A DNA stretch of 64,000 nucleotides from assembly GCA_963770565.1 (NCBI GenBank), contig CAVYQE010000001.1:224001-288000 (forward strand), read 5' to 3'. Made by a program: the position numbers and the translations under genes. The notes below the pieces were generated by a model, which made no database searches, was not told the DNA's origin, and saw only the letters and a list, made by a program, of their open reading frames with translations. Origin of the DNA: an uncultured Actinomycetota bacterium. GTDB taxonomy: Bacteria; Actinomycetota; Actinomycetes; JAFAQI01. This document shows, in pieces, positions 9,787 through 27,715 of this stretch (position 1 is the stretch's first letter; every line of letters begins with the position of its first letter).

Positions 9787-10092
9787 CTCGCCGCGAAAGG
9801 GGTCGGGAGTCGATTTCGCCCGCTGAACGATCCATAGTGCGAACCGACATCATGGCGAAATCGACTCCCGATCCCCTTTGGGCAACGCCGCCGGAAGATA
9901 AGCCGGTTCTCGAACAGGCTCTTAGGAGCCTGTCCGAGAACCGGCCAAAATCTCCATACTAGCCCGACGCGCTAGCGAGGGCGTATCGGCGACGACTCCC
10001 TCGCTGGCGCATTGGGCTAGTATGCGCCGAAATCGACTCCCGACCCCCTTTAGGCAACGCCCCCGGAAGATAAGCCGGTTCTCGAACAGGCT
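9787..10092. mobile_element. Two abutting MITE family A copies; the second carries a different REP (TAGCCCGACGCGCTAGCGAGG..CCTCGCTGGCGCATTGGGCTAG)
   Basis: Ends GGTTCTCGAACAGGCTC-TTAG-GAGCCTGTCCGAGAACC; inner palindromes seen directly. Confidence 0.75.
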
Positions 10093-10151
10093 CCTGGGGC
10101 ATCGACAACCGCGGCCCTGCAAGCAATGGCACGAACTGCCGAGACTGCGAT

Positions 10152-11203: not shown

Positions 11204-11284
11204 AACAAGCAATGGCGAGAGGTGAAACGAGCAAACCCAGCCGCTTGAGTCTACCGCGCACCCCCCGCCCCCCGCGACGCCCCA

Positions 11285-11515
11285 CCCCGCGCTCCGCTCT
11301 CTGCTCTCCGCTCTTCGCTCTTCGCTCTCGGCCGTGCCGCCCGCCAATGTAGCCGGCACGCTCCGCCGTGCCGCAGCCAATGTAGCAGCCACGCTTCGCC
11401 GTGCGCCCGCTAGCTCAATGTAGCAGCCACGCTCCGCCGTGCCGTAGCCAATGTAGCAGCCACACTCCGCCGTGCCGCCCGCCCCTCTCCGCTCTCCGCT
11501 CTCTGCTCTCCGCTC
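11285..11515. repeat. Heptamer (GCTCTCC-like) runs flanking about 4 copies of a 30-33 bp unit (GTAGCAGCCACGCTCCGCCGTGCCG)
   Basis: Seen directly in the sequence. Confidence 0.7.
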
Positions 11516-13998
11516 CTTCCTATCGATCGATCCATGCCGCCAAAGCTTCACACCTTCGCACCTTCGCACCTCATCCCGCCTCGGCAGGCCGGCGGAATCG
11601 AAGAAAGTCGTGACCGGCGATCCGCTCAAGAATCCCGTTTCAATCCGCCGCCGGTCTTTCGACCGGCGGAATCGGGCGACCATCTGGAACACGTAAACGC
11701 CCAGTTTCAATCCGCCGCCGGTCTTTCGACCGGCGGAATCGTCCGTGTAGAGGATGATGCTCGAGTAGACAAAGTGTTTCAATCCGCCGCCGGTCTTTCG
11801 ACCGGCGGAATCGCCGTAGTCGCGGGCGTCGGCCTCGGCTTGCAAACGGGTTTCAATCCGCCGCCGGTCTTTCGACCGGCGGAATCCACAAACGGCTGTA
11901 TCAATTCTTCGCCGACGGCTGTTTCAATCCGCCGCCGGTCTTTCGACCGGCGGAATCAGCCTTATGCCGTAAGGAGTTACGGAAATGGTTGCAAGTTTCA
12001 ATCCGCCGCCGGTCTTTCGACCGGCGGAATCGGTTCAGTTCCTCGGCGTCAATCGCAAGCCGCAAGGTTTCAATCCGCCGCCGGTCTTGCGACCGGCGGA
12101 ATCCCGGAGGAGGTTGACCGGGCCATGGCGAACGGTCGTTTCAATCCGCCGCCGGTCTTTCGACCGGCGGAATCCGTGCGTTGCAGAGTGTGACCGCCGG
12201 GCTTGCGTGTTTCAATCCGCCGCCGGTCTTTCGACCGGCGGAATCTATGCTCTACATCCTCGCCAATCGATCAAACTTTCGTTTCAATCCGCCGCCGGTC
12301 TTTCGACCGGCGGAATCGATAAATCCGACGCTGCCCGGCTCGAGAACGCCAGTTTCAATCCGCCGCCGGTCTTGCGACCGGCGGAATCCGTCACGCTGCG
12401 CATGGCTAGCGGCACGATCGACGTTTCAATCCGCCGCCGGTCACGCGACCGGCGGAATCCGTGGAACGGACGCAGCCGCGTCTCGCTTCACTTGTTTCAA
12501 TCCGCCGCCGGTCACGCGACCGGCGGAATCGCCTACGCCCCTTAACTCTCTGAGGTGATTTATGTTTCAATCCGCCGCCGGTCATTCGACCGGCGGAATC
12601 GTCGCGCCGATCAGTGCACCAATCACGGGCCGAATACACGTTTCAATCCGCCGCCGGTCATGCGACCGGCGGAATCGATGTTCGTTGGCAACGTCGCCGC
12701 GCGGCGGCCAAGCTGGTTTCAATCCGCCGCCGGTCACGCGACCGGCGGAATCGGACGGATAACACGTCGAGCATCTCGCAAGCGGTTTCAATCCGCCGCC
12801 GGTCACGCGACCGGCGGAATCTGACCGCTGAGGCTTTATGATCCTCAGCTCAAGATGTTTCAATCCGCCGCCGGTCTTTGACCGGCGGAATCAGTAGCAG
12901 CGATTTGGGCCGACGGGTGGCAGGGGGTTTCAATCCGCCGCCGGTCACGCGACCGGCGGAATCCTACTATATATAGTGACTAACCGATAAGGCTTGTGTG
13001 TTTCAATCCGCCGCCGGTCACGCGACCGGCGGAATCGCGGGCTGCGAATCGGCCTGCTCGACGATCTATGGTTTCTCCGCCGCCGTCGTCGACGCATCGC
13101 ATCACCCGCTGCATGCACTGGATAATGTGTTTCAATCCGCCGCCGGTCTTTCGACCGGCGGAATCGCCGCCGTTGTCCTGCTGCCGCGTGGTCGATACGA
13201 GCGTTTCAATCCGCCGCCGGTCATGCGACCGGCGGAATCGCGGCTGACGGCATGCGACTGTCAAAGAGCAAATCCTGTTTCAATCCGCCGCCGGTCACGC
13301 GACCGGCGGAATCTCAGCTACCAAACGGCCGCACTCTACCCGTTGGCGTTTCAATCCGCCGCCGGTCACTCGACCGGCGGAATCGATCGCAGTGCTGAGT
13401 CACAGCCGTTGATCCATCGGGTTTCAATCCGCCGCCGGTCTCTCGACCGGCGGAATCTCGTCGGGTCGCATACGGCTAGACGATCAGTGATCAGCGTTTC
13501 AATCCGCCGCCGGTCATGCGACCGGCGGAATCGCTGGCTGATTAGACGCCGCCCATAACGGACCGTCCATGTTTCAATCCGCCGCCGGTCTTTCGACCGG
13601 CGGAATCTTGCCACGAACTGAGGACCGTTGAACACGGATTGTTTCAATCCGCCGCCGGTCTTTCGACCGGCGGAATGAGTGCGAACTGATCGAGGACGAG
13701 TGCAATGATGGGTTTCAATCCGCCGCCGGTCTTTCGACCGGCGGAATCGCGAGCGTTTACGGTGGACGCGTCAATTCTCCGGTTTCAATCCGCCGCCGGT
13801 CTTTCGACCGGCGGAATCGGCCCGAGGCCGGTTAGACCGCCGCCTCCTGACCCGGCGAATGGCCTATGGACCGGCTGCATACTCGGGATTTGCTGATTTG
13901 TCCGGTGCAACATCTGGACGCCTGTTCGGCTTGCGGACGCGAAGGAAGCGTGGCAAGCTAGGAGTAGGTGATTTGTGTCCCCTCAACGGAGAATCGCT

Positions 13999-14214
13999 AT
14001 GCGACCACCCCAAAGCAACGTCGAGCAATTGGCAGGCATGTTGGTGAGTATGATCGTCGGAGCGTTCTGCATCGTCTTCATTTCCCCATTTCTTCTGGCT
14101 GTCGCCTTCACCTGGCCTAGAGTCTTTTTGATCGGCTTGGCGGCGCTGCTCTGCACGCTCGCCGGGATTGGGTTCCATCGCCTTTTCCGCCGACTATTCG
14201 TTCGGCGGAATTAG
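13999..14214 (+). CDS. Small two-TM membrane protein inside the CRISPR insert
   Basis: GGAG upstream of ATG; two hydrophobic stretches and a basic tail. Confidence 0.5.
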   Translation: MRPPQSNVEQLAGMLVSMIVGAFCIVFISPFLLAVAFTWPRVFLIGLAALLCTLAGIGFHRLFRRLFVRRN

Positions 14215-14529
14215 ACCGTTGATCCACTCTTCGAAGCTACTCTTAAAAAGCGGCGGATTGCCACCGTTATTGTACTGGATTGGCAGCCAGCTTCCGTCGC
14301 CAGAAATTGCGGTATTCCACGGATTTTCGCGGTAGTTGAAGAATAAATGCACGTCGTAGATATTGTTGCCCTGCCAATCTCCATAAGGGGCAATCACGAC
14401 GGAATCGAACAGCAATGTCAGCGCATCGGCACCAAAAATTGGATTTGCGTTGATCGTACCGCAGTATTTCTGCACTGAGCAGATTGCCGCGTTCGTCAAC
14501 ACCGTGGCCGTGGACGCGTCAATTCTCCG
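14194..14529 (-). CDS. 5'-truncated hypothetical (possibly phage) protein inside the CRISPR insert
   Basis: Open frame from the repeat junction (RRIDASTATVLTNAAIC..WINGLIPPNE); protein-like composition, lower GC. Confidence 0.45.
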   Translation of the reverse strand, partial: RRIDASTATVLTNAAICSVQKYCGTINANPIFGADALTLLFDSVVIAPYGDWQGNNIYDVHLFFNYRENPWNTAISGDGSWLPIQYNNGGNPPLFKSSFEEWINGLIPPNE

Positions 14530-17500
14530 GTTTCAATCCGCCGCCGGTCTTTCGACCGGCGGAATCTTCGGCGGGGCCAGTCATTCGCCGGCCCGTGACG
14601 TTTCAATCCGCCGCCGGTCTTTCGACCGGCGGAATCCGACAGTCGCGGTCGTCTTATTGCAGCAGGCATGGTTTCAATCCGCCGCCGGTCTTTTGACCGG
14701 CGGAATCGCACAGGGCCGGAACATCCGCCAGGGCGGCACGGTTTCAATCCGCCGCCGGTCTTTCGACCGGCGGAATCTCGCCGATCGGACGTCAGCGACT
14801 CGGAACGAAGCGTTTCAATCCGCCGCCGGTCTTTCGACCGGCGGAATCGGAAGTGCCGTCGATGCACGTCAGCCCGCTGTGTTTCAATCCGCCGCCGGTC
14901 TTTCGACCGGCGGAATCGCGGCGACCGATTCTATCGCCGCGAGCATCGTGGTTTCAATCCGCCGCCGGTCTTTTGACCGGCGGAATCCGGCTCCGCGTGA
15001 CTTTAGCCATTCAGCGGGTCATGTTTCAATCCGCCGCCGGTCTTTTGACCGGCGGAATCGCCGAACGAAATGCCCTGCCGGATCAACAGCAGTTTCAATC
15101 CGCCGCCGGTCTTTCGACCGGCGGAATCATCTGTGAGCCGCGTGATCCATTCCAGTCGATGTTTCAATCCGCCGCCGGTCTTTCGACCGGCGGAATCGCC
15201 GAACGCACACGGTGTCGCGAGGAGCCGCTCGTTTCAATCCGCCGCCGGTCTTTCGACCGGCGGAATCGGTGCATGATCTGCACTGCCAGGCCTTGCGGAT
15301 GGTTTCAATCCGCCGCCGGTCTTTCGACCGGCGGAATCGCTCGTCAACTCGTCGCGGCAATGCGAACGGCAATCGTTTCAATCCGCCGCCGGTCTTTTGA
15401 CCGGCGGAATCTCTCTTGCGGCGGGATGCACGGCATCGTGATCGGGTTTCAATCCGCCGCCGGTCTTTCGACCGGCGGAATCGGGGCCCGCGTCGAACGC
15501 TCCGCTCGCTCCAAATGTTTCAATCCGCCGCCGGTCTTTCGACCGGCGGAATCGCCGACTTCGTCGAGCGGGCGATGGTCGTGGATTGTTTCAATCCGCC
15601 GCCGGTCTTTTGACCGGCGGAATCCGAGGATGCGGCTATGCAGCTGCGACGAATCGAGACGTTTCAATCCGCCGCCGGTCTTTCGACCGGCGGAATCGCA
15701 TAGCCGCCAAGGGGACCGACGCGGGCTGTCGGTTTCAATCCGCCGCCGGTCTTTCGACCGGCGGAATCCGACACGTTAGCATCGTGCCGATGACGCCTCC
15801 GAGTTTCAATCCGCCGCCGGTCTTTCGACCGGCGGAATCCATCCGTCCGCCAAGGGGTGAACTGATCAGTAGTTTCAATCCGCCGCCGGTCTTCGACCGG
15901 CGGAATCCGGCCATAATCCCGCACGAAAGTTAAGGCCGTTAGTTTCAATCCGCCGCCGGTCTTTCGACCGGCGGAATCGGCTTCATATCCGAATGTCTCG
16001 AATTGGAAAAGTTTCAATCCGCCGCCGGTCTTTCGACCGGCGGAATCCGATGCTCGGCTGAGTTGTAGAGGATTCCGGTTTCAATCCGCCGCCGGTCTTT
16101 CGACCGGCGGAATCGGTGCGTCGAACGCGGGATCGCTGACGTCACGGTTTCAATCCGCCGCCGGTCTTTCGACCGGCGGAATCTGCTGGCGTTCGATCGG
16201 CACTTCGCCGCGCAGTAGGGTTTCAATCCGCCGCCGGTCTTGCGACCGGCGGAATCAAGGTGATACGCACGTGGAAGGACTGATTGCGGTTTCAATCCGC
16301 CGCCGGTCTTTCGACCGGCGGAATCGCTGAATCTAAACGCAGATAATCTGACCGGCGGTCGTTTCAATCCGCCGCCGGTCTTTCGACCGGCGGAATCTTG
16401 ACTCTCGACCGCGATGCAAGCGGAGCTATCAGTTTCAATCCGCCGCCGGTCATTCGACCGGCGGAATCGGAGACCCTTGACGCCGCCGCGCCGAGAAGTT
16501 TCAATCCGCCGCCGGTCTTTCGACCGGCGGAATCGAATGGTGTTCATCGCCGATAACATGCCACTCGATGTTTCAATCCGCCGCCGGTCTTTCGACCGGC
16601 GGAATCGGCGAGACGAACAGCGAAGACTTCAACCGACAGTTTCAATCCGCCGCCGGTCTTTCGACCGGCGGAATCCGCCGGTCATGTCGGCGATCCGGCG
16701 GAATCCCGGTCGAATTCGGCAATGTTTCAATCCGCCGCCGGTCTTTCGACCGGCGGAATCCGGCATCCGTAAGCAATTGCCTCGCCGGTTCATGTTTCAA
16801 TCCGCCGCCGGTCTTTTGACCGGCGGAATCCAAATTGCCACTCGCATGGTGAGTAGGTGTTTCAATCCGCCGCCGGTCTTTCGACCGGCGGAATCAACTG
16901 CGTGCCCGGAGACGATACGAAGTTTCAATCCGCCGCCGGTCTTTCGACCGGCGGAATCGGCAGCACCGTCGATCACCGCTCAAACAGGTTTCAATCCGCC
17001 GCCGGTCTTTCGACCGGCGGAATCGATGGCGGTTTACTTCGCCGTCCCGAGCGCCACGGTTTCAATCCGCCGCCGGTCTTTCGACCGGCGGAATCGGGTT
17101 GTCACCATCGCGAAACCTGGAAATCAATGTTTCAATCCGCCGCCGGTCTTTCGACCGGCGGAATCGAGTGCTGCGCAGTTCTCACGGGTAGACGCAGGTT
17201 GTTTCAATCCGCCGCCGGTCTTTCGACCGGCGGAATCGCGATCGGACTCACTCTGCCGTATAGAATCCGGCGTGTTTCAATCCGCCGCCGGTCTTTCGAC
17301 CGGCGGAATCAGTGCAGATCGCAGATCATCGTCGCAACGTCAGCGATGGTTTCAATCCGCCGCCGGTCTTTCGACCGGCGGAATCGCGACGCCACTCCGA
17401 GCTACGATTTGCACGATGTTTCAATCCGCCGCCGGTCTTTCGACCGGCGGAATCCGAGCTCGAATCACGGCGAAATTGCTCGATGGATGTTTCAATCCGC

Positions 17501-19083
17501 CGCCGGTCTTTCGACCGGCGGAATCAGCATTCGAGCACATCAAACGTCCTAGGCGTATCTGTTTCAATCCGCCGCCGGTCTTTCGACCGGCGGAATCGTG
17601 ACGTGCATGTGTCTTCCCGATTTCCGCAGCTGTTTCAATCCGCCGCCGGTCTTTCGACCGGCGGAATCTCGACCGCTCCGTGACTTTGCACAGCACTGAA
17701 CGTTTCAATCCGCCGCCGGTCTTTCGACCGGCGGAATCGCGTGCGCGGTTCGCAGTGGCAAGATAGTTTCTGTTTCAATCCGCCGCCGGTCTTTCGACCG
17801 GCGGAATCGTCTCCGCAACGGTCGTCATGCCGACGTCGATGTTTCAATCCGCCGCCGGTCTTTCGACCGGCGGAATCTCTGTCTCGCGGTCAGCCACGCC
17901 GATTTGTAAGTTTCAATCCGCCGCCGGTCTTTCGACCGGCGGAATCGCTCTGTGTTGGAATGCGCTGACAGATGATCCGTTTCAATCCGCCGCCGGTCTT
18001 TCGACCGGCGGAATCGTCGGCACCGATCTTTCGATGCATCATGTTCTTATGTTTCAATCCGCCGCCGGTCTTTCGACCGGCGGAATCGCGGCGTGGAGTT
18101 ATCAGGCCGACGTCGAGCTTGTTTCAATCCGCCGCCGGTCTTTCGACCGGCGGAATCCGGCGACTGTGCACGCCATGCCGACATGGCAACGAGGTTTCAA
18201 TCCGCCGCCGGTCTTTCGACCGGCGGAATCGGCCGGACAGATATCTGTTACGACTGTCGATCGAACTGTTTCAATCCGCCGCCGGTCTTTCGACCGGCGG
18301 AATCGGCGGCATTGAACGCCGAAGCCGTTGACTGCTGCTGTTTCAATCCGCCGCCGGTCTTTCGACCGGCGGAATCGGTCGCAGTCGCGGCATGAATCGC
18401 ACATCAGACGAAGTTTCAATCCGCCGCCGGTCTTTCGACCGGCGGAATGCGACACCGGAACGCGATCTGCGCGCGATGTAGATGTTTCAATCCGCCGCCG
18501 GTCTTTCGACCGGCGGAATCGGCGGCAAGTCGGGCAGACACGTCGGAGATACAGTTTCAATCCGCCGCCGGTCTTTCGACCGGCGGAATCATAGCTGACC
18601 GCAGCATCGACCGCAAGCGCCGTAGCATCGTTTCAATCCGCCGCCGGTCTTTCGACCGGCGGAATCGAGCTCGAGCGTCGAACATGTCGAGCTGTACACA
18701 TGTTTCAATCCGCCGCCGGTCTTTCGACCGGCGGAATCGCCGGTGCACTGCTGATCGGACGCCGTGTCAGATGTTTCAATCCGCCGCCGGTCTTTCGACC
18801 GGCGGAATCGCTGATTCGTCCACTGGCGGACGATCCACTACATTGTTTCAATCCGCCGCCGGTCTTTCGACCGGCGGAATCGCGTCGCTGCTCATTCTGC
18901 CGGCAGTTCTGCATGTTTCAATCCGCCGCCGGTCTTTCGACCGGCGGAATCGTCGTGCCATCGCGTGAACCATGTCGAAATGTTTCAATCCGCCGCCGGT
19001 CTTTCGACCGGCGGAATCTGAAGGTGATTCGGCTCGGCGGCACTTCGTTTCAATCCGCCGCCGGTCTTTCGACCGGCGGAATC

Positions 19084-19290
19084 CGCTGGCTTCCCAAGTC
19101 GAAGGCTGGCAATCGGTTGCGCTGGTCAATCGCGGACCTCCAGCAGCGCGGGGCAATCGCCGTTTTGTCGCAGCCATGTCGTCGCCCTAACTCGAGAAGA
19201 ATGCCCGACTTGCAGCTTCCGCGAACTCCCCGGCAAAATCGCCGGCGCTTGGGGTCCGCGAACGGCCGATCGGCCGGGCCAGCAGTGCCG
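19084..19290 (-). promoter_or_regulatory. CRISPR leader
   Basis: Non-coding gap between cas2 and the first repeat; inverted TCGCGGACC/GGTCCGCGA motifs at about 19130 and 19253. Confidence 0.7.
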
Positions 19291-19293
19291 CCA

Positions 19294-19575
19294 TCATATC
19301 ACGAGCGGGCCGTCCATGTCGGTCGGCTCGTGCGCCATGATGTTCGACACGCGTATCGCCGTCGAGGAAGTAGAAGCGGAGCGAGTCCTCGCGCGCCTCG
19401 ATCAATCCCACCAGCCGGGGCGCAATCGCACCCACTCCGTCGTCCCGACAAGGCACTCGAAAACCGACTTCTGTACTCGCTGCCCAAAGTCCTCGCAACA
19501 TTGGGCCACCTGCCGCAGCCGCTTGCAGCCCGCGGGAGTCGCCGTCGCCACGTCGTAAACGATGAGAACTTTCAT
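19294..19575 (-). CDS. cas2: CRISPR-associated Cas2 (frameshifted)
   Basis: MKVLIVYDV..KRLRQVAQCCEDFGQRVQKSVFEC..DSLRFYFL. Confidence 0.95.
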
Positions 19576-19681
19576 GGTTCGCCGTAGACCATCGCCGCCA
19601 TGAGGCAATACTTATGCGCCGCGTCGCAAACGATGGGGACGTTCATGGTTCGCCGGCCTCCGCGGCCCCCAGCCTTGCCGC

Positions 19682-20716
19682 TCAGTTCTTGGGGACGAAC
19701 GGAACGTAATCGGCCAAATCGCCGCGGATGTGCCGCGCCAGAATGCGGGCTTGCAAAAAGGGCATGCGGCCGAACGTCGTCTTCTGCGCGAGCAGCGGAT
19801 GCATCAACTCCTCGCGCTTTCGCCGGTGATACTCCGCGAGCACGATGCGCCGCGTCGCGTCGTTCATCTCGACGCTGCCGCCGTCGCGCGTCGTGAATCC
19901 CTCGGCCTTGACCTGCTGCCGATTGACCAGGGCCAGCGCCAGCCGATCGGCCGCCAGCGCGCGGAACTCCTCCATGAGATCGAGCGCCAAGCCGGGCCGG
20001 CCGGGTCGATCGACGTGCAGGAACCCGACATTTGGATCGAGTCCCGCCGCCGCCGCCGCCGACACGCAATCGTTCAACAACATGCCGTACAGAAACGACA
20101 ACAGCGCGTTCATCGGATCGAGCGGGGGTCGGCGCGACCGCCCCTTGGGCGCGAACGTCGCACGCTCGTTGCGGACGAGGGCGGGAAACGCGGCAAAATA
20201 GTTTCGGGCGGCATCCCCTTCATACCCGCGAACCGAATCGACGGACTCCGCGACCGGCAACCGGGGAATGGCGTCGGCCAGCCGCGCGGCGGCTTGTTGC
20301 AGGGCTTGCCGATCGCCCGCGTCGTCGGTCTCGCGGGCGCCGCGGAGGATCAGATTGCGGCAGTTGTGAATTTTGCCGGCCACGACCTGGGCCGTGATTT
20401 GCCGGATGCGATCCGGCAGGCTGGCCAAGCGAAATTGCTCGCGGCGGAGCAGAACGTTCCCCGAGCCGGGGGCGTCGACGCGGGCCCGCAGCCGGCCCGA
20501 CTCGGTGAGGAAATTGACGGCCACTCCGTTATCCGCGCAGAGGCCCATCGCGCCGGGCGTGACATGCACGCCGCCGAACGCAGCCACCGATTCCAATTGA
20601 TGCACGGGGACCGCGAGCTTCACCTTGCGCTCGACGACGACTTGCAGGGTGAGATGGTCGCGGCGGATCGACGATCCGCGCGTCACGACATAGAGCGTGT
20701 TGAGTTGGATTTCCAT
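19682..20716 (-). CDS. cas1: Type I-C Cas1
   Basis: LNTLYV, SGNVLLRREQF, RGYEGDAA, RSRRPPLDPMNALLSFLY, LALDLMEEFR. Confidence 0.98.
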   Translation of the reverse strand: MEIQLNTLYVVTRGSSIRRDHLTLQVVVERKVKLAVPVHQLESVAAFGGVHVTPGAMGLCADNGVAVNFLTESGRLRARVDAPGSGNVLLRREQFRLASLPDRIRQITAQVVAGKIHNCRNLILRGARETDDAGDRQALQQAAARLADAIPRLPVAESVDSVRGYEGDAARNYFAAFPALVRNERATFAPKGRSRRPPLDPMNALLSFLYGMLLNDCVSAAAAAGLDPNVGFLHVDRPGRPGLALDLMEEFRALAADRLALALVNRQQVKAEGFTTRDGGSVEMNDATRRIVLAEYHRRKREELMHPLLAQKTTFGRMPFLQARILARHIRGDLADYVPFVPKN

Positions 20717-20722
20717 GGCGGA

Positions 20723-21602
20723 TCACTTCGATGGGAGAACCTCGCCGGCCGCGTCGCCGACGGTGAACAATTCGGCTGCCGCTCGGCGATAGGCCGCCGG
20801 GGCGGAGACCAATTCCGGCAAGCAAAGTGCATACAGCGAGCATTGCCGGCATTTCGGGTGCAGGATCGGCGGGGGCGTGACGCCGCAGGCGAGCAGCTCA
20901 TGCAAGCGGGCGGCGGCGTCGCTCGTTTTGCGGCGCAGCGATGCATCGAAGGCGACGTCGCGCCGCCGCCGAGATTTGACGTGGAAAATCGCCCCCCGCG
21001 GCACGAACACGCCCAGCATTTCCTCGAGGCAGATCGCCTGGGCACAGAGCTGCACGTCGTCGTTGTCCCACTTCCGCCTCTTCCCGCGCTTGTACTCGAT
21101 GGGAAACGGCGTCTCGGCGGCGTCCTGGGGAAACAGCGGCGGCGGCGGGCCATGGAGCGGGGTTCGCCAAGATTCCAAGCCGGAGTCGCGCGGCTTGTTG
21201 CGCGGCGGGACAACTCCCTCACCCCCGTTCGACAAGCTCGCGGCAGGCAGGCCCTCTGTCGTCAAGGGAGAGGGAGCGGACAAGGGGGAACTCGAAATAT
21301 TCCCGGCCGGACCTTCGTTTGGCGGCGGATGAAACTCGACCAGATCGGCCACGCCGACCAGCCGCAGCCGATGACTCACCAGCCGCAGCCCGCGCCGTTC
21401 GAAACGGCACCTCCTCGGCATCCCGCGGCTCATGCGCCCGCCGATGATCGAGTGTCCCCGCCTGGGTGTGCATATTCTCGACCCAAATCCCCTCCAGCCG
21501 ATGCAGCGCGCACCGCCGCGGGCAGAACAACAGATCGTTCAACGCCGAAAGCGGCGGATAGTCGTCGGAAACGGCATTGGTCGTGGCGGGATCGCTCGAC
21601 AT
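20723..21602 (-). CDS. cas4: Cas4 exonuclease with internal low-complexity insertion
   Basis: LSALNDLLFCPRRCAL, GVADLVEF, PIEYKRGK, QLCAQAICLEEM, KCRQCSLYALCLP. Confidence 0.93.
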
Positions 21603-21651
21603 GGTCTCGCATCTCCACGGGGCTGAAACCGGTTTTGCACCGCCGCAACCT

Positions 21652-22586
21652 TCAGCCAACCATCCTGTGCAACCTAACGCCAGCGGGCAAGTCTTTCTCG
21701 TCGATTGCGATTTGCGGCCGATAATCGTCAAAGCCGCGAGGGGCCTTATCGGGGCCGAGAGCGGGGGTTCGGATACGGGCGAACAAGTCTGCGCCGGCGC
21801 GGCGCCGAGAGGCGAATCGTGCTCGAAGACATACAGCCCGCGAGTACACATCAAGCCGCGGCTGGCCGAACGATCGATTTCCCACATCACTCCTTTGAGC
21901 GCCGACCAAAGCAATTCCAGATCGGCGTCGGAGAAGCCGGTATCGCGAGCCAAATACGGGCTGACGAAGCCGTGGCAGCGATAGAGCGCGTAAGGGATCG
22001 TATTCTTGCGGCCCATGGTTCCCGTAATGCTGCCGTCCTTTTCGGATTGTTTTTTGGCCTCATCTTCGGTCGTAACGGACTTTCTTGTAATCGAAAACTC
22101 CAGCGGAACGATCACGTCGAGGGAGCGCGCGAATGTGATCTGGACGGGGCCGCGAACTTGGCCGCAGTTCACCCCGGTTGTCATCACAGCACCGAAAGCG
22201 CGGATGTCGTAGAAGTTCTCGCACATCCAATGGCGAGCCTTGCCGGTGTTTTCGGCTTTCTTTCTGGCGTCCTTTTCATCGGCGGCGCCGACGGCGGCAT
22301 GGGCTCGCTGGTGCTGGAGATTAAGAACCCGTTTCTCGTAGACCGCATCCTGCGTCTGAAAGTAGAGTTCGCAACCCGGGCGATTCTCGGCCAATACCGA
22401 GATGGCGTTGCGAATCTTCCGCTTCAAGCAACCATCCGTGACCAGACCTTGGAGCGATTGCGGATCGATGCGCGGCATGTTGCCGGAATCCGGATCGCCA
22501 TTGGGATTGCCGTCCAAAACGTCGAAAAGAAACGCGAAATCGTATCGCCGTGAAACGGGAAGGGCCGAAGTTGCTACTGTCGCCAT
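21652..22586 (-). CDS. cas7: Cas7c/Csd2 backbone subunit
   Basis: FDVLDGNPNGDPDSGNMPRID, FYDIRAFGAV, GQVRGPVQ, TMGRK. Confidence 0.97.
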
Positions 22587-22626
22587 AATGGAATTCTCCA
22601 AATGAGGATGGTCCGTGGTTGTTTAC

Positions 22627-24410
22627 TCACGCCGAAGCCGATTCGAGCGATTTCGCCTTCCGCTCGGCGATTTGCTCGAATTGTTCAGCGCGTTGGTGAT
22701 AGTATCCCAACGCAAAACGCCCTTGATCTTGCAACGAGAGTTGGCCTTTCGGGCCCGATGGCGGCAACAGCCTGGAGACCTCGGTCAAGAGCTTGTCGAG
22801 AGCCACAAAGGAGCCCGGCTTCTCCCCGCGCAGCTTTCGCAGATGATTCTCCGCATCGGCGTAGAGCCGAGAGAAAACGAGCGACGGCGCGGAGCTGAAC
22901 GTGCCGTAGAACTTGTCCACGACGTTCGCGTTGACATCGCCGAGCGCCGCGTACTGAATCTGCTCGAACACCGCCAACAGTCGGCCGTAAAGATACGCCG
23001 GCTGGCGCTCATCGGAATCCAATGTGTCAGTCACGGGAATGTCCCTTCGTAAAAGAATGAGCTTGATCAGAGCCATCCGGACCGCCCGGAAGCCAGAGCG
23101 GCCTTCGCGCGCAATCGCCGGAGGCATGCGACAAGCAACGATTCGCAAAGCGGAGTGCCGGCGATCGCGGATTCGAGCAACCGTGCCGGCGTGTCGGGGG
23201 CCACCTGATCGGAGTCGAAGGCGGTCGCGGCGGCAAGTTGCCAGAGCGGAAATGCGCGTGGTGGGCTTTCCGCCGCCGTGCTTGGAGACGTCGGCAATCC
23301 GCAATTGCCTGAACCAGCGGACGAGGTTTTCCATCGGCGCGGCATCGGCAGTTCGAGATAGTCGCGAACGACTGCCCGAGCGGCGTTTCCGCTCAGGACG
23401 AGCACATAGAATGCATTGACGTCGTCAACGGCATGGGACTCGACGCCCTTGAAGATCGATTCCAGCAGATGCTCGAATTGTTCCGCGGACGCTTCGAAGA
23501 TTCCCATGAACGAGGTGTCGGTCGGCTCGCGCGTCCAGAACAGAACGATGACGTCGCCCAATCGGATGCTGGTCCGCGGATTCCCGGGAACCTTATTTCG
23601 AATCAAGGCGTTCAGAGCGCGGCAATAACCGTCGACGGCGGCATATCCGAGACCGGCGTTCGCGGTCCCATCGAGGCCGTAGCTCTCGAATGCCGCCTTG
23701 TCATAGGAGACGATGCTCACTCCAGTCGAAAGACCTCCGGGAATTCCGCTCAACTTGATCGGATGCGTCGTCGGGATCGGGCCGAATTCGCGGGTCACCT
23801 GACATAGCCCGTGCGGGCCGCCCTGCTGTTTCGCAAGGCTCACTCGGGCAAACAATTCGGTGTACCACGCGCGGACTTTCGGTCGCTCGACGATCGTTTT
23901 TCCGTTGTCGGGATTCCAGGCAAAAGTGCAGCGGTCGCCGGCGCCGGGCTTGAGTTCGGCAAACTCCGCCCCGACTTTCGCGGCCAGCGATGCGTCGGCC
24001 TGAAGGGCATGCCCGAACTTCGCGACGGCGAGCAGCGCGGGATCGTCGGTCGCGGCGGCGGCTTCGTCGATTTGCCGCCAGAAGGTCGCTCGGCTCCGCT
24101 CGGCCTTTTCGCGGCTCTCGTCGTCGATGGCGACGGGCAACACGCGCGGGAGCGTGTCGGCAAAGTATTTGGCAAAGCCTTGATTGGCCGCGTTGCCGTG
24201 CGCCATCGGCACCGACAATGGATTTCCGCGATCGGGCTTCGGCTTTGCCGTTTTGCCTTTCGCCGGCAAAAACCCGCGCCGCTCGACGATGCCAAGATAG
24301 TTGCCGTCATCGCCGATCTGAATGATCCAGGGGACCGGCAATGTCTCGAAAGCCAAATCGTCGGTCAGGCCATCTCTTTTCGCCAATTCGTAAAGCCGAT
24401 TGAGGATCAT
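22627..24410 (-). CDS. cas8c: Cas8c/Csd1 large subunit (frameshifted)
   Basis: [67 protein letters not shown]. Confidence 0.95.
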
Positions 24411-25224
24411 GCCGCGGTCTCCTCTTTTTCCCAGCCGAGAATTTTGACGGGAGGCTCGCCGTTTGGTCCCGCGGCCTCGCGATCGCAATGCAACACGCCG
24501 CGAACGACATTGGCGTCGAAGTATCCCGGCTGATTCTTGCCGTTTTGGCCGTACTGAAGGTCATAGAGCATCAGGCCGAGGGATTGATTCCAGTCGGTCA
24601 ACGGCGCTTCCAATCCGTTGAACGGGAGCGAATTGGCAAGCAAACTCGCGGCAGCCCAAGTACGGCCGATGAAAGCACTGGCCCTTGGCCACGCGGCGGT
24701 TGAACATCGCGACATACTTGGCGACGTTGTCCGGCCCGCCGTCTTCATCGACATCGGGCGGTTTCATTCGCGGGCGATTGGCCTTGTCGGTCAGGAAGAT
24801 CGACGCATCGATGCGATAAGCGACGTGTTGCAAGCAAAGCGAATTCCGCTGCGTGCGATTCTGACCTTGCGCACTTTCGCGGCCCGCCGAATCGACGAGA
24901 TACGGCTGGAACGTCGAGGGATTCTTGATCCAACCTTCGACGGTCCGGGGAGCGATTTTCCCTTGAATCTCATTCCGGCGAATGCCGATCAGGCGATACG
25001 GCATCTCCGCCGCCGCGGGCGGGAAATCCGGTGGAAATGCCGGCCTGAGCGCCGTGATGCGGCGAACGTGCCATCGCATCTGCGGCTTGAAGAGAACCGC
25101 CTCCAGCGCCCCGCGCCGCGGAGGGGGTCATGAGCGGATAAGAAAGCCGCTCGACCTTCAACTCGGGGCGAGTAAACATCGCGAATTCGCCCCAGACCTT
25201 AATTGAGGCAACCGGCGTGGACAT
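24407..25224 (-). CDS. cas5: Cas5c/Cas5d crRNA-processing subunit (frameshifted)
   Basis: [51 protein letters not shown]. Confidence 0.95.
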
Positions 25225-25242
25225 AACGCTCTCCTTTGCTCG

Positions 25243-27499
25243 CTAGACTACAAGCGCGGTTTCGGCGGCCTCGCCGCTCACGCCAAGATACGCATCATAC
25301 GCTCCGTAATAGACGAGCAAACCCAGATTCTCGGTAAGCTGGGCAACCAAGCCGGTCATTTTCGCGATTTCGTGTCGCCGCAAGTTCACCTGAAACGGGA
25401 CCAACGCCCGGAAATTGGCGCGGGATTTGTCGGCGCGAAGATTGTCGAGCAAGATCTCTATCTCCGCTGTGCGCTCGCGCCACGTTGCCACGACAACCGG
25501 CACACTGTCGTCGTCGATGAGCGAGTAGAGCTTGGCCACTTCAGCGAAGTTGCCGGTCTTGCGATGGCCTTCGATGTTGTGGGCGTCGAGGTCTCCGGAA
25601 TGAAACAGCCTCGTGAAATAGGCGAGGATATCGGCTGGTTCGTCGATTCGCGGAGGATTGCCCGCGGCGAGAAAGTTCGCTTCAAGAATCTGGCGGCCGG
25701 CCTTGTACCATGGATCGCGCGGCATCGAATCCTCGGCCGCGCGGAACACCACGACTTCGCCGCCCGGTCAACCGTCGGGGCCGTTGAGCAGCCCTTCGCG
25801 ATTGCACCGACCCGCGGCTTGAATCACCGATTCGAGCGGCCCGATTTCGCGCATAACGAGCGGAAAATCCACATCGACGCCGGCCTCGATCAACTGCGTC
25901 GAGGCCAAGTGGCAGGGTTCGCCGCGCCGGAGCCGCTCGCGCACCGCGTCAAGGACGGCGAGGCGATGGGCCGGACACATCGCCGTCGAGAGATGAAACG
26001 CCGCATCGCCGACGCGCTGTTGAAGCTCCAAGAAGACGTTTCGGGCAGCGGCCCGCGTGTTGACGACGCACAGCGCAGCCCGACCGCCGCCGATAGCCCG
26101 GCCGTCGGTCATCCGCTCGGCAACCTGCGCCCAGGTGAGCGGCTCGTCGCCGCGCAGTGGCCAAACCACTTCGACTCGCTTCAGCCGACGGAACAGCTCC
26201 AGCCCGTCGGGGATGATTTCTGCGGCCCGGAGCCTTTCGTCCTCCGCAAGCTGCTCGTGGTCGAAAGCCGGTTGAGTCGCGGTGCAAAGAATAATCGACG
26301 CGCCGAGCGAATCGGCGACTTGCCGCAGCATGGCGCATGTCGGAGCAGCCAAACCCGGCGGCACGGATTGACATTCATCGAGGATGATGACGCTACGGGC
26401 GATGTTGTGCAGCTTTCGGCATCGCGACGGCCGATTGGAAAACAGGCTCTCGAAGAACTGCACGTTGGTCGTGACGATCAGCGGCGCGTCCCAATTCTCG
26501 GCGCGGCGAACGGCGTGCTGCGCGCCGTCTCGTCGCCATCGTCGCCGCCATAGGGCTCGGCCAAGCTGTGATGCTCGAAGAGATCGAGATCGGAACGGCC
26601 GATCCCGAGCCCTCGCGAATGACGGCGGCGTTTTGCTCCAGGATGGTCAAATACGGAGCGACATAGATTATTCGCCGCAGGCCGTTGAGCGCGGCATGCC
26701 GCAGTGCGAAGGCGAGGCCCGAGAGTGTTTTTCCGCCGCCGGTTGGAACCGTCAGCGAGAACAGGCCGGTTGCTTTTTCTGCGGCACTGAGGCAAGCCTG
26801 TAAGACTTCATCGCGGATTGTCGCGATCGCTCGCTGACACGACTTCGCGCGAATTTGGATGTGCTGAAGCAAGACCGCGAGCCGATCGGCCGGATTCAAT
26901 CGAGGCGGCGCGGGTTCGAGCGGCAACATGTTGACCGACCGCTCGTGAATCGAGCTATCGGTCCAATCGGCGTCGATCAAGCAACTGAAGATGATGCGCG
27001 TGAGGAACTCGGCTCCCAATGCGTCAACCGACCCGGCGAGACCCAAAGAAAGCGCGGCGATAGGCGGGCAGTCGGAGGCGACTGCCGCCGAGATCGCCGC
27101 CGCGTCGGAGGTCGCGAGCGGTGATTTGATCAGGCTGGCCAATGCGGCGCGGTCGGGGATCCCGCCGTGATGCCCGGCGATGGCGAAGGCAACGGGAACA
27201 TTTCCAGCCCGCGCCGTTCGCGCGGCGCCGGCCTGCTTGTGAAACGTCTGCTCGCGCGGAACGGTAAGCGGCCGCCTGTCGAATCGGCAGTCGAGCAGCG
27301 TTTGAAATCCCGTCCGGTACTTTCCCAGGTCGTGCAGCCAACCGGCAATCTTGGCGGTGGAAATAAAGGCGTCGTCGGCCGGGCATGCCGCGCGGGCGAA
27401 ATCCTCCGCAAGCCGGGCGACGTTGGCCAAGTGCTCGCGGAGCAACTGCCAATCGGCGCGATCGGCGCGGTGGCCGGAATGGGCGTAGTAAATGGACAT
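25243..27499 (-). CDS. cas3: Cas3 HD nuclease-helicase (frameshifted)
   Basis: YYAHS, WLHDLGKY, IAGHHGG, PTGGGKT, ILDECQ, STQLIEAGVDVDF, QAAGRCNREG. Confidence 0.96.
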
Positions 27500-27715
27500 G
27501 CGTGCGCAACCCTCGGGAGGGTAGCATAAGCCGCTGCGGGGTGCGCGCACAAGCAGTTTTGCCGTCGCGAGGGAAGAAAAAGCGAAGCGGCGGGCGGCAC
27601 GCGCGGGGCGCGCGGCTACGGTTGCGCGGCTGTCGAGACGCCGGCGTGCTGGTCGCGGAGCCTCATCGAGAATTCGGACGCGCCAAGCTGGATTGGGGCG
27701 ATGATGATTGCACAA

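Follow-up and report, generated by a model that had tools for sequence, protein, structure and literature searches.

The stretch of DNA considered here, hereafter the window, comprises 64,000 nucleotides of an uncultured Actinomycetota bacterium (GenBank assembly GCA_963770565.1, contig CAVYQE010000001.1, positions 224,001 to 288,000 of the forward strand), and all coordinates are those of the window. It carries a CRISPR array with type I-C cas genes beside it, and one unit of this array is a giant, in which two perfect repeats are separated by phage-related DNA of a length that could accommodate genes. The assembly (4.43 Mb in 11 contigs, GC content 0.67-0.70, 95% completeness, 4% contamination) looks like a metagenome-assembled genome (MAG), and the array is the only one in the whole genome (contig C1). 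The array and the features of its giant unit are as follows.

11637-19083, minus strand: CRISPR array, 93 full 37-nt repeats (with up to 8 substitutions) and 2 more with a one-base deletion
13749-13781, minus strand: older neighbouring spacer, here S_old, 33 nt, whose leader-proximal 20 nt (13762-13781) are the shared 20-mer
13762-13818: left (trailer-side) copy of a 57-bp duplication, made up of 20 nt of S_old and repeat R29
13819-14509: foreign fragment 'B', 691 bp, unique in the genome
13975-14214, plus strand: 79-aa hydrophobic open reading frame (ORF), with a GTG start codon 9 nt past an AGGAG and, as the alternative, an ATG at 13999
14194-14509, minus strand: truncated phage-family gene, the 3' third (residues about 229-331 of about 330), 5' end cut off
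14510-14566: right (leader-side) copy of the 57-bp duplication, made up of the 20-mer and repeat R30

Both R29 (13782-13818) and R30 (14530-14566) match the 37-nt consensus without a mismatch and 711 bp lie between them, as the initial annotation of this DNA had stated. The flanking intact repeats are those of a canonical spacer but the length is not, being 711 bp (or 691 bp when the 20-mer is discounted) against a median of 34 nt and a range of 26-48 nt for the 88 ordinary spacers, a baseline from which the insert was left out. The sharing of 20 nt with the adjacent spacer, which together with the repeat gives a 57-bp direct repeat, had also been claimed and turns out to be exact: the 57 nt of 13762-13818 are those of 14510-14566, and identity breaks off at both edges. 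The 20-mer, when up to 3 mismatches are allowed, has just two sites in the 4.43-Mb assembly, namely these two copies. Along the transcribed strand one meets, in turn, the leader ... R30, S_old nucleotides 1-20, 691 bp, R29, S_old nucleotides 1-33 and R28, and the left junction falls exactly at the end of a repeat (13818/13819). The notion that S_old is an internal deletion product of the giant unit was set aside, since its last 13 nt differ (by eye) from the far end of the insert.

The insert had been described as being of lower GC content, and this it is (0.548 for the fragment against about 0.68 for the genome), with 0.615 in its left 156 nt, 0.56 in the small ORF and 0.50 in the truncated one. 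The tetranucleotide GGCC stands at both ends of the fragment (13819-13822 and 14506-14509); this may be a coincidence, with odds of about 1 in 100-250, or may reflect the way in which the fragment was cut.

The convergent truncated ORF that had been pointed out within the insert is present on the minus strand at 14194-14529 with an open 5' end: its frame stays open through the 20-mer to 14529, the upstream stop is inside R30 and its own stop is at 14194-14196. A HMMER scan over 1.84 billion representative proteins returned 17 at E ≤ 1e-3, this genome's own call (P0001) among them. Most of the others are of about 270-330 aa and align by their C-terminal third, a few being short or longer (59-493 aa), and the best full-length homologue, P0002 (332 aa), is 56% identical, its residues 229-331 pairing with residues 10-111 of the query. 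Since the homologues align in this way, what the insert holds is the 3' third of a gene that lost its 5' part to a cut. The family is represented by no model in Pfam or PHROG. P0002 was modelled with AlphaFold2 on an alignment of 15 sequences (predicted local distance difference test 76, predicted template-modelling score 0.74), and the model gave 12 matches at E ≤ 1e-3 in BFVD, all of them uncharacterised proteins of 256-400 aa from 'uncultured Caudovirales phage', the top one with an E value of 1.5e-11 and a template-modelling (TM) score of 0.60; as BFVD is confined to viral proteins, this reveals the existence of phage relatives and not an exclusivity to phage. A hidden Markov model (HMM) of the family, run over 401 genomes of the phylum with this one included, had this fragment as its sole match, and a family-pattern search of GTDB species genomes yielded no confirmed relative, both of which are in keeping with a viral origin of the family. 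Against the PDB the P0002 fold had nothing at E ≤ 1e-3, and the weak tail-tip and baseplate matches (TM 0.1-0.2) are no evidence of function. The fold relatives suggest that the truncated gene specifies a 'tailed-phage protein', a description to which no finer function is attached. The 691 bp are foreign and phage-related, so that the earlier suggestion of foreign, possibly phage, DNA has held up, both through the homologues and through the fold matches. At 14250-14266, 17 nt resemble the repeat in inverted orientation; the resemblance is at chance level and is accounted for by the conserved GGNPP coding motif of the phage family.

The other ORF of the insert, the 79-aa one, is convergent with the truncated gene and overlaps its stop. 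It has a plausible ribosome-binding site, GC contents of 0.56, 0.45 and 0.68 at the three codon positions, and two hydrophobic stretches, as judged by eye; the earlier description of it as a small membrane ORF stands as regards the reading frame and the hydrophobicity. It has no homologues at E ≤ 0.01 and no Pfam or PHROG match, and its Atlas feature scores, at no more than 0.87, are under the useful range.

The viral-database check that had been proposed had a mixed outcome, with the BFVD fold relatives on the positive side. The insert had no blastn match in phage and plasmid collections, nor had the best homologue a tblastn match in the phage collection; the 20-mer had 0 matches in IMG/VR; and of the matches to family patterns in IMG/VR (20), GTDB genome contigs (101) and JGI metagenome contigs (306), tblastn confirmed none. 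Comparison with sister arrays, also proposed, came to nothing: the repeat and the insert were both missing from the 40 relatives examined, and a pattern for the repeat, run against GTDB contigs, JGI metagenome contigs and IMG/VR, gave 0 matches. The one hit among the relatives, a 35-nt match (86%, E 8e-4) in G009 to the region of the small ORF, was treated as chance.

The claim that transposase and terminal inverted repeats are missing was also confirmed. Neither ORF of the insert matches a transposase or integrase in Pfam or PHROG, there is no tnsA, tnsB, tnsC or tniQ in the insert, and the inverted repeats found in it are the palindromes of the CRISPR repeats themselves and short pairs at chance level. 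An insertion sequence or transposon has a transposase, terminal inverted repeats and a short target duplication; here the first two are missing and the duplication is of 57 bp. No Rfam family was matched inside the insert, its terminator-like sites number 2 as against 2.0 ± 1.7 in shuffled versions, its promoter-like sites number 0, and the best match of any other spacer to it is 11 nt, which is no match. The faint repeat-like stretch that had been remarked on at 13837-13860 did not survive comparison with shuffled inserts, scoring 11 where the null has a mean of 9.5 and a 95th percentile of 12. For another such stretch (14187-14211) the score is 14, where the highest among 300 shuffled inserts was 13; this is marginal and is accompanied by no Rfam repeat call.

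Is this one array or two? The repeats of units 26-31, on either side of the insert, all have the TTTC loop; no insert-like sequence is present in the leader, nor does the interval between R29 and R30 have a leader of its own, the best local alignment of insert and leader extending over 13-19 nt (score 21); and the genome has a single array. For these reasons the insert sits in one continuous array and not between two. Array-parsing software would read the locus as two.

An exact 57-bp duplication bracketing 691 bp, with identity ending abruptly, argues for a single staggered insertion, and the coincidence of one junction with a repeat border argues for an integrase that is specific for such borders; a random breakpoint would fall on either border of a unit of about 71 nt in some 3% of cases by our estimate. 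We infer from this the enzyme and the order of its two joins. The reading that we prefer, to which we would give a probability of roughly 0.4, is that a tailed-phage fragment of about 0.69 kb entered the continuous I-C array by one staggered-cut insertion, most likely through the array's own Cas1-Cas2 (with Cas4). The adaptation complex would have taken up an untrimmed phage fragment and placed its first end precisely where the target repeat borders on its leader-side neighbour, which is also where Cas1-Cas2 normally makes its first join. The other end would have been attached on the opposite strand 57 nt away, 20 nt into the downstream spacer instead of at the repeat-spacer border, and gap filling would then have duplicated the repeat plus 20 nt (57 bp) rather than the 37-bp repeat. 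A substrate whose length far exceeds what the two active sites can hold between them may have made the ruler for the second site fail. If the target was the repeat that was then first, about 64 younger units would have been added later. Insertion at an interior repeat is the other option, and it has precedent in the integration at interior repeats described for other systems (PMC8047081). Also counted in favour are signs of loose adaptation elsewhere in the array, namely spacer lengths that vary between 26 and 39 nt and a malformed unit at 16676-16723, and an insert that is without transposase, integrase, terminal inverted repeat or leader copy.

Several considerations weigh against this account. 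Cas2 is frameshifted at present, and the insertion would therefore have to be older than that decay. The narrow phrases used for the search turned up no report of an in vivo insertion, by Cas1-Cas2, of a fragment hundreds of bp long. The instance is single, in an apparent MAG, with neither a sister array nor a source phage found. There is also the matter of the 20-mer, which could be native phage sequence: its seven residues, RRIDAST, score +2.78 bits on the 'hrvpasa' columns of the family, a score that is equalled or exceeded in 3 out of 91 ends of other spacers when read in that frame, in 59 of the 2472 7-mers from spacers and in 1.85% of 21-mers drawn at random from the genome.

Whose, then, is the 20-mer? 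If it came from the target S_old, the event was an insertion of 691 bp with a 57-bp target duplication; if it came from the phage gene, the event gave a spacer-like piece of 711 bp whose first 20 nt are common to it and the adjoining spacer. According to HMMER, local homology to the family begins with the first whole codon past the 20-mer, residue 8 in a frame of 111 aa, whether the HMM is that of 15 sequences or that of the 8 close homologues, and hmmalign leaves residues 1-7 unaligned. Strictly conserved columns are matched in 1 of 3 cases at the 20-mer as against 14 of 15 in residues 8-111. When five registers are allowed, 16 of 91 spacer ends do as well as RRIDAST or better. We judge that the lines of evidence roughly cancel, and prefer an origin from the target because a single event then covers everything, which makes that origin a little better than an even bet and an origin from the phage a substantial minority prospect. 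It is thus on parsimony that we infer the 20-mer to belong to the target.

The best-placed rival takes the opposite view of the 20-mer. It supposes that the 20 PAM-proximal nt of the phage protospacer (PAM, protospacer adjacent motif) match S_old, itself an earlier acquisition from a relative, and that the 711-bp piece entered beside S_old by way of this match, through homologous or microhomology recombination between spacer and protospacer at the right junction or through primed capture at the same PAM, the other end being placed at the repeat border. We hold this to be unlikely without being far-fetched. RRIDAST fits the HR[LIVM]PAS motif of the family better than about 97% of control peptides. 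MAFFT places it at that motif, with H-R-x-P of 8/8 close homologues opposite R-R-I-D of the fragment, and an ungapped register of residue 1 to G24 is possible; the family is prone to indels just downstream of the motif. The residue preceding the motif is hydrophobic in homologues, which makes a Phe codon, TTC, conceivable there, TTC being the presumed PAM of this type I-C system. Recombination between spacers and phage targets was reportedly described in staphylococci by Varble and colleagues in 2019. Set against this, the HMMER alignment stops short of the 20-mer, the strictly conserved H and P of the motif are replaced, and past the 20 nt S_old and the insert agree at 3/13 bases (ungapped, by eye), an abrupt break and not a gradual divergence. 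Moreover, one crossover within 20 nt would not of itself leave S_old intact and add a whole repeat besides, so that another event would still have to take place where repeat and spacer meet. Spacer-guided recombination, one of three mechanisms that the initial annotation had offered, thus stays in contention through the weak fit of the 20-mer to the family profile; Cas1-Cas2 integration of an untrimmed fragment, another of the three, fits best with a junction on the border and a homology that starts after the 20-mer. Between off-register integration by Cas1-Cas2 and homology-assisted capture we favour the former.

The third mechanism, a relic of an element that used repeat plus spacer as its att site, has found no positive support in the insert itself, where no integrase is present and the junction interrupts the phage gene in the middle of its ORF. 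In its fuller form it would have a larger mobile element, such as a prophage, reside in a CRISPR repeat, with aberrant excision or integration duplicating a spacer-repeat unit and a later deletion removing most of the element, so that what is left would be the 3' end of a tail-module gene, a convergent small membrane 'moron' and an att site. According to a preprint, the phage PhiAP1.1 enters any repeat of a type II-A array, and spacer duplication was seen in 2 of 100 lysogens (bioRxiv 10.1101/2020.10.09.333658). In our view a late gene followed by a small membrane ORF on the opposite strand, beside a junction, would resemble the end of a prophage. Such a history is nonetheless improbable: it would take three events or more, among them a deletion that ended within the duplicated spacer, no integrase or further phage gene is present at the site or elsewhere, given that the family HMM matches just this fragment in the genome and the insert is unique there, and the stretch near R29 that looks like a repeat does not rise above chance.

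A chimeric join in the assembly, of array reads with phage or with a phage-array recombinant molecule, deserves thought, given that the contig number, completeness and contamination suggest a MAG, that arrays vary among strains and are hard to assemble, and that the junctions are known from the assembled contig alone. It is nevertheless quite improbable. Random joins do not give an exact 57-bp duplication with a junction precisely on a repeat border; the assembly is not error-ridden, as rpoB (1148 codons) and rpoC (1435 codons), 7.7 kb together and on the same contig, are both uninterrupted; and a 7.4-kb array inside a 1.6-Mb contig implies long reads.

That two arrays are separated by an ordinary chromosomal gap, which had been named as one of two cases that would overturn the idea, is hardly credible in spite of the composite history that the different loop variants of older units 12-25 betray, in view of the same repeat variant on both sides, the missing leader copy, the single array of the genome, a gap whose GC content is far under the genome's, a 5'-truncated phage-family gene running into a repeat and a 57-bp duplication bracketing it all.

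How does the locus compare with what is known? With Cas1-Cas2 acquisition, canonical or ectopic, it has in common phage DNA between two perfect repeats, a junction on a repeat border and a target duplicated by a staggered cut; unlike the canonical process, it has an insert of 691-711 bp instead of 26-39 nt and a duplicated target of 57 bp instead of 37 bp. Casposons provide a conceptual likeness, a Cas1-family integrase inserting kilobases of DNA with target duplication, but terminal inverted repeats, casposase and PolB are missing here, and casposon duplications are of about 14-15 bp. Recombination between spacer and protospacer likewise joins phage sequence to an array at a stretch identical to a spacer, but here no more than 20 of 33 nt are common, and the locus also has one whole repeat more, along with the spacer in undamaged form. 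Tn7 duplicates 5 bp of its target. Tn7-like transposons that target arrays insert in a spacer beside an intact repeat at a set distance (PMC11837452), which is reminiscent of the present case, though this has no tnsABC or tniQ, no transposon ends and a duplication of 57 bp. PhiAP1.1 of Streptococcus pyogenes, as the same preprint describes it (bioRxiv 10.1101/2020.10.09.333658), also resembles the present case in that phage DNA lies between repeats of an array and that spacer-repeat duplications can accompany integration, but its array is of type II-A and not I-C, and a prophage of that kind would have an integrase and a prophage genome between attL and attR where here there are 691 bp with two small ORFs and a phage gene cut mid-ORF at the junction.

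It is possible, at rather less than even chances, that the locus is a natural fossil of the transposase-like capability of Cas1-Cas2(-Cas4), with an insert of 0.69 kb, a precise leader-side cut, a second cut that slipped by 20 nt and a resulting 57-bp duplication. The adaptation integrase would then retain an ability for casposase-like insertion of long DNA in vivo, and its ruler for the second site would depend on prespacer length, register being lost when a substrate exceeds what can be measured. The locus would then constitute field evidence for integration of hundreds of bp by a CRISPR adaptation complex, which would matter both for the descent of CRISPR adaptation from casposons and for the use of Cas1-Cas2 to write DNA. 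Were the homology-based alternative true instead, the locus would be a type I example of recombination between phage DNA and a spacer. Under either, arrays can take up and retain pieces of phage genomes of coding length.

The array as a whole has about 95 units, and a mean spacer GC content of 0.594. Its one-base-deletion repeats are at 12857 and 15872, with the deletions falling in the loop, and further features in or beside it are these.

About 11583-11599: partial terminal repeat at the left (trailer) end of the array
Near 13070: decayed repeat, heavily mutated, within the 92-nt interval 13037-13128
16676-16723: malformed unit, a 48-nt 'spacer' that opens with a 5'-truncated repeat (CGCCGGTC...CCGGCGGAATC, altered loop) and then has 18 nt only
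19084-19290, minus strand: presumed leader, of presumed extent, between cas2 and the first repeat

Type I-C repeats have a stem-loop and then an 11-nt handle ending ATTGAAAC. This is what the present repeat has when read as its reverse complement, a stem-loop followed by CGGATTGAAAC and a terminus of ...GGATTGAAAC, the minus-strand arrangement being ...CCGCCGGTC GAAA GACCGGCGG CGGATTGAAAC. The Rfam family CRISPR-DR9 matches it on the minus strand with 31.3 bits, under the gathering score of 45. The orientation of the stem-loop, the Rfam strand, the position of cas2 at the right end and the decayed terminal repeat at the left all argue that the array is transcribed on the minus strand, with its oldest units at the left. 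Repeat units 12-25 (12423-13532) have the loop variants ACGC, ATGC, ATTC, ACTC and TCTC, and the TTTC loop is that of units 1-11, which are older, and of units 26-93, which are younger, with TTTT or TTGC now and then, a mosaic that suggests recombination or block transfer inside the array. On the plus strand G directly follows the repeat in 51 of 88 spacers and T directly precedes it in 37 of 88, the first base of the insert (13819) likewise being G; the repeat could be one of 38 nt, or the integrase could have an end preference. No convincing self-target of the array's spacers was found elsewhere in the genome, the best matches being of 16-21 nt (E 0.001-0.009).

A full type I-C gene set adjoins the array at its right on the minus strand (Pfam: Cas3_HD, Cas3 C-terminal domain, Cas5d, Csd1, Cas7, Cas4, Cas1, Cas2), with the cas3-cas5-cas8c(csd1)-cas7-cas4-cas1-cas2 content beside an array that defines a type I-C locus.

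19190-19608, minus strand: cas2, frameshifted, its N-terminal portion (positions 1-47 of the 74 in Pfam Cas2) and its C-terminal portion in separate frames
19682-20716, minus strand: cas1, open frame
20723-21433, minus strand: cas4, open frame
21219-27715, minus strand: remaining type I-C operon (cas7, cas8c/csd1, cas5, cas3)
22627-23334 and 23067-24488, minus strand: cas8c/csd1, two overlapping frames
26393-27715 (HD part) and 25768-26463 (helicase C part), minus strand: cas3, in at least two pieces (region 25243-27715), with a TGA within the helicase-core match

The operon appears to have been pseudogenised and the locus to be decaying, and the giant unit is probably without function today, a neutral fossil. 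Between cas1 and cas2 there is a 39-nt direct repeat (87% identical; 19546-19584 and 19617-19655) that copies the start of cas2, its ATG and about the first 9 codons included, and looks like the scar of a small duplication.

Three other contigs of the assembly (C3, C4 and C5, of 30.4-30.8 kb each) have common blocks at 75-99% identity and may be variants of one element of about 30 kb, or strain-level redundancy; the array's spacers had no match to them at E ≤ 0.01. Beyond the trailer end of the array, 11251-11525 has C/T-rich runs of CGCTCT type and four tandem units of about 33-38 nt (CAATGTAGCAGCCACGCTCCGCCGTGCC...), and further to the left a 71-nt direct repeat, 93% identical, occupies 9856-9926 and 10028-10098, its copies being 172 nt apart.

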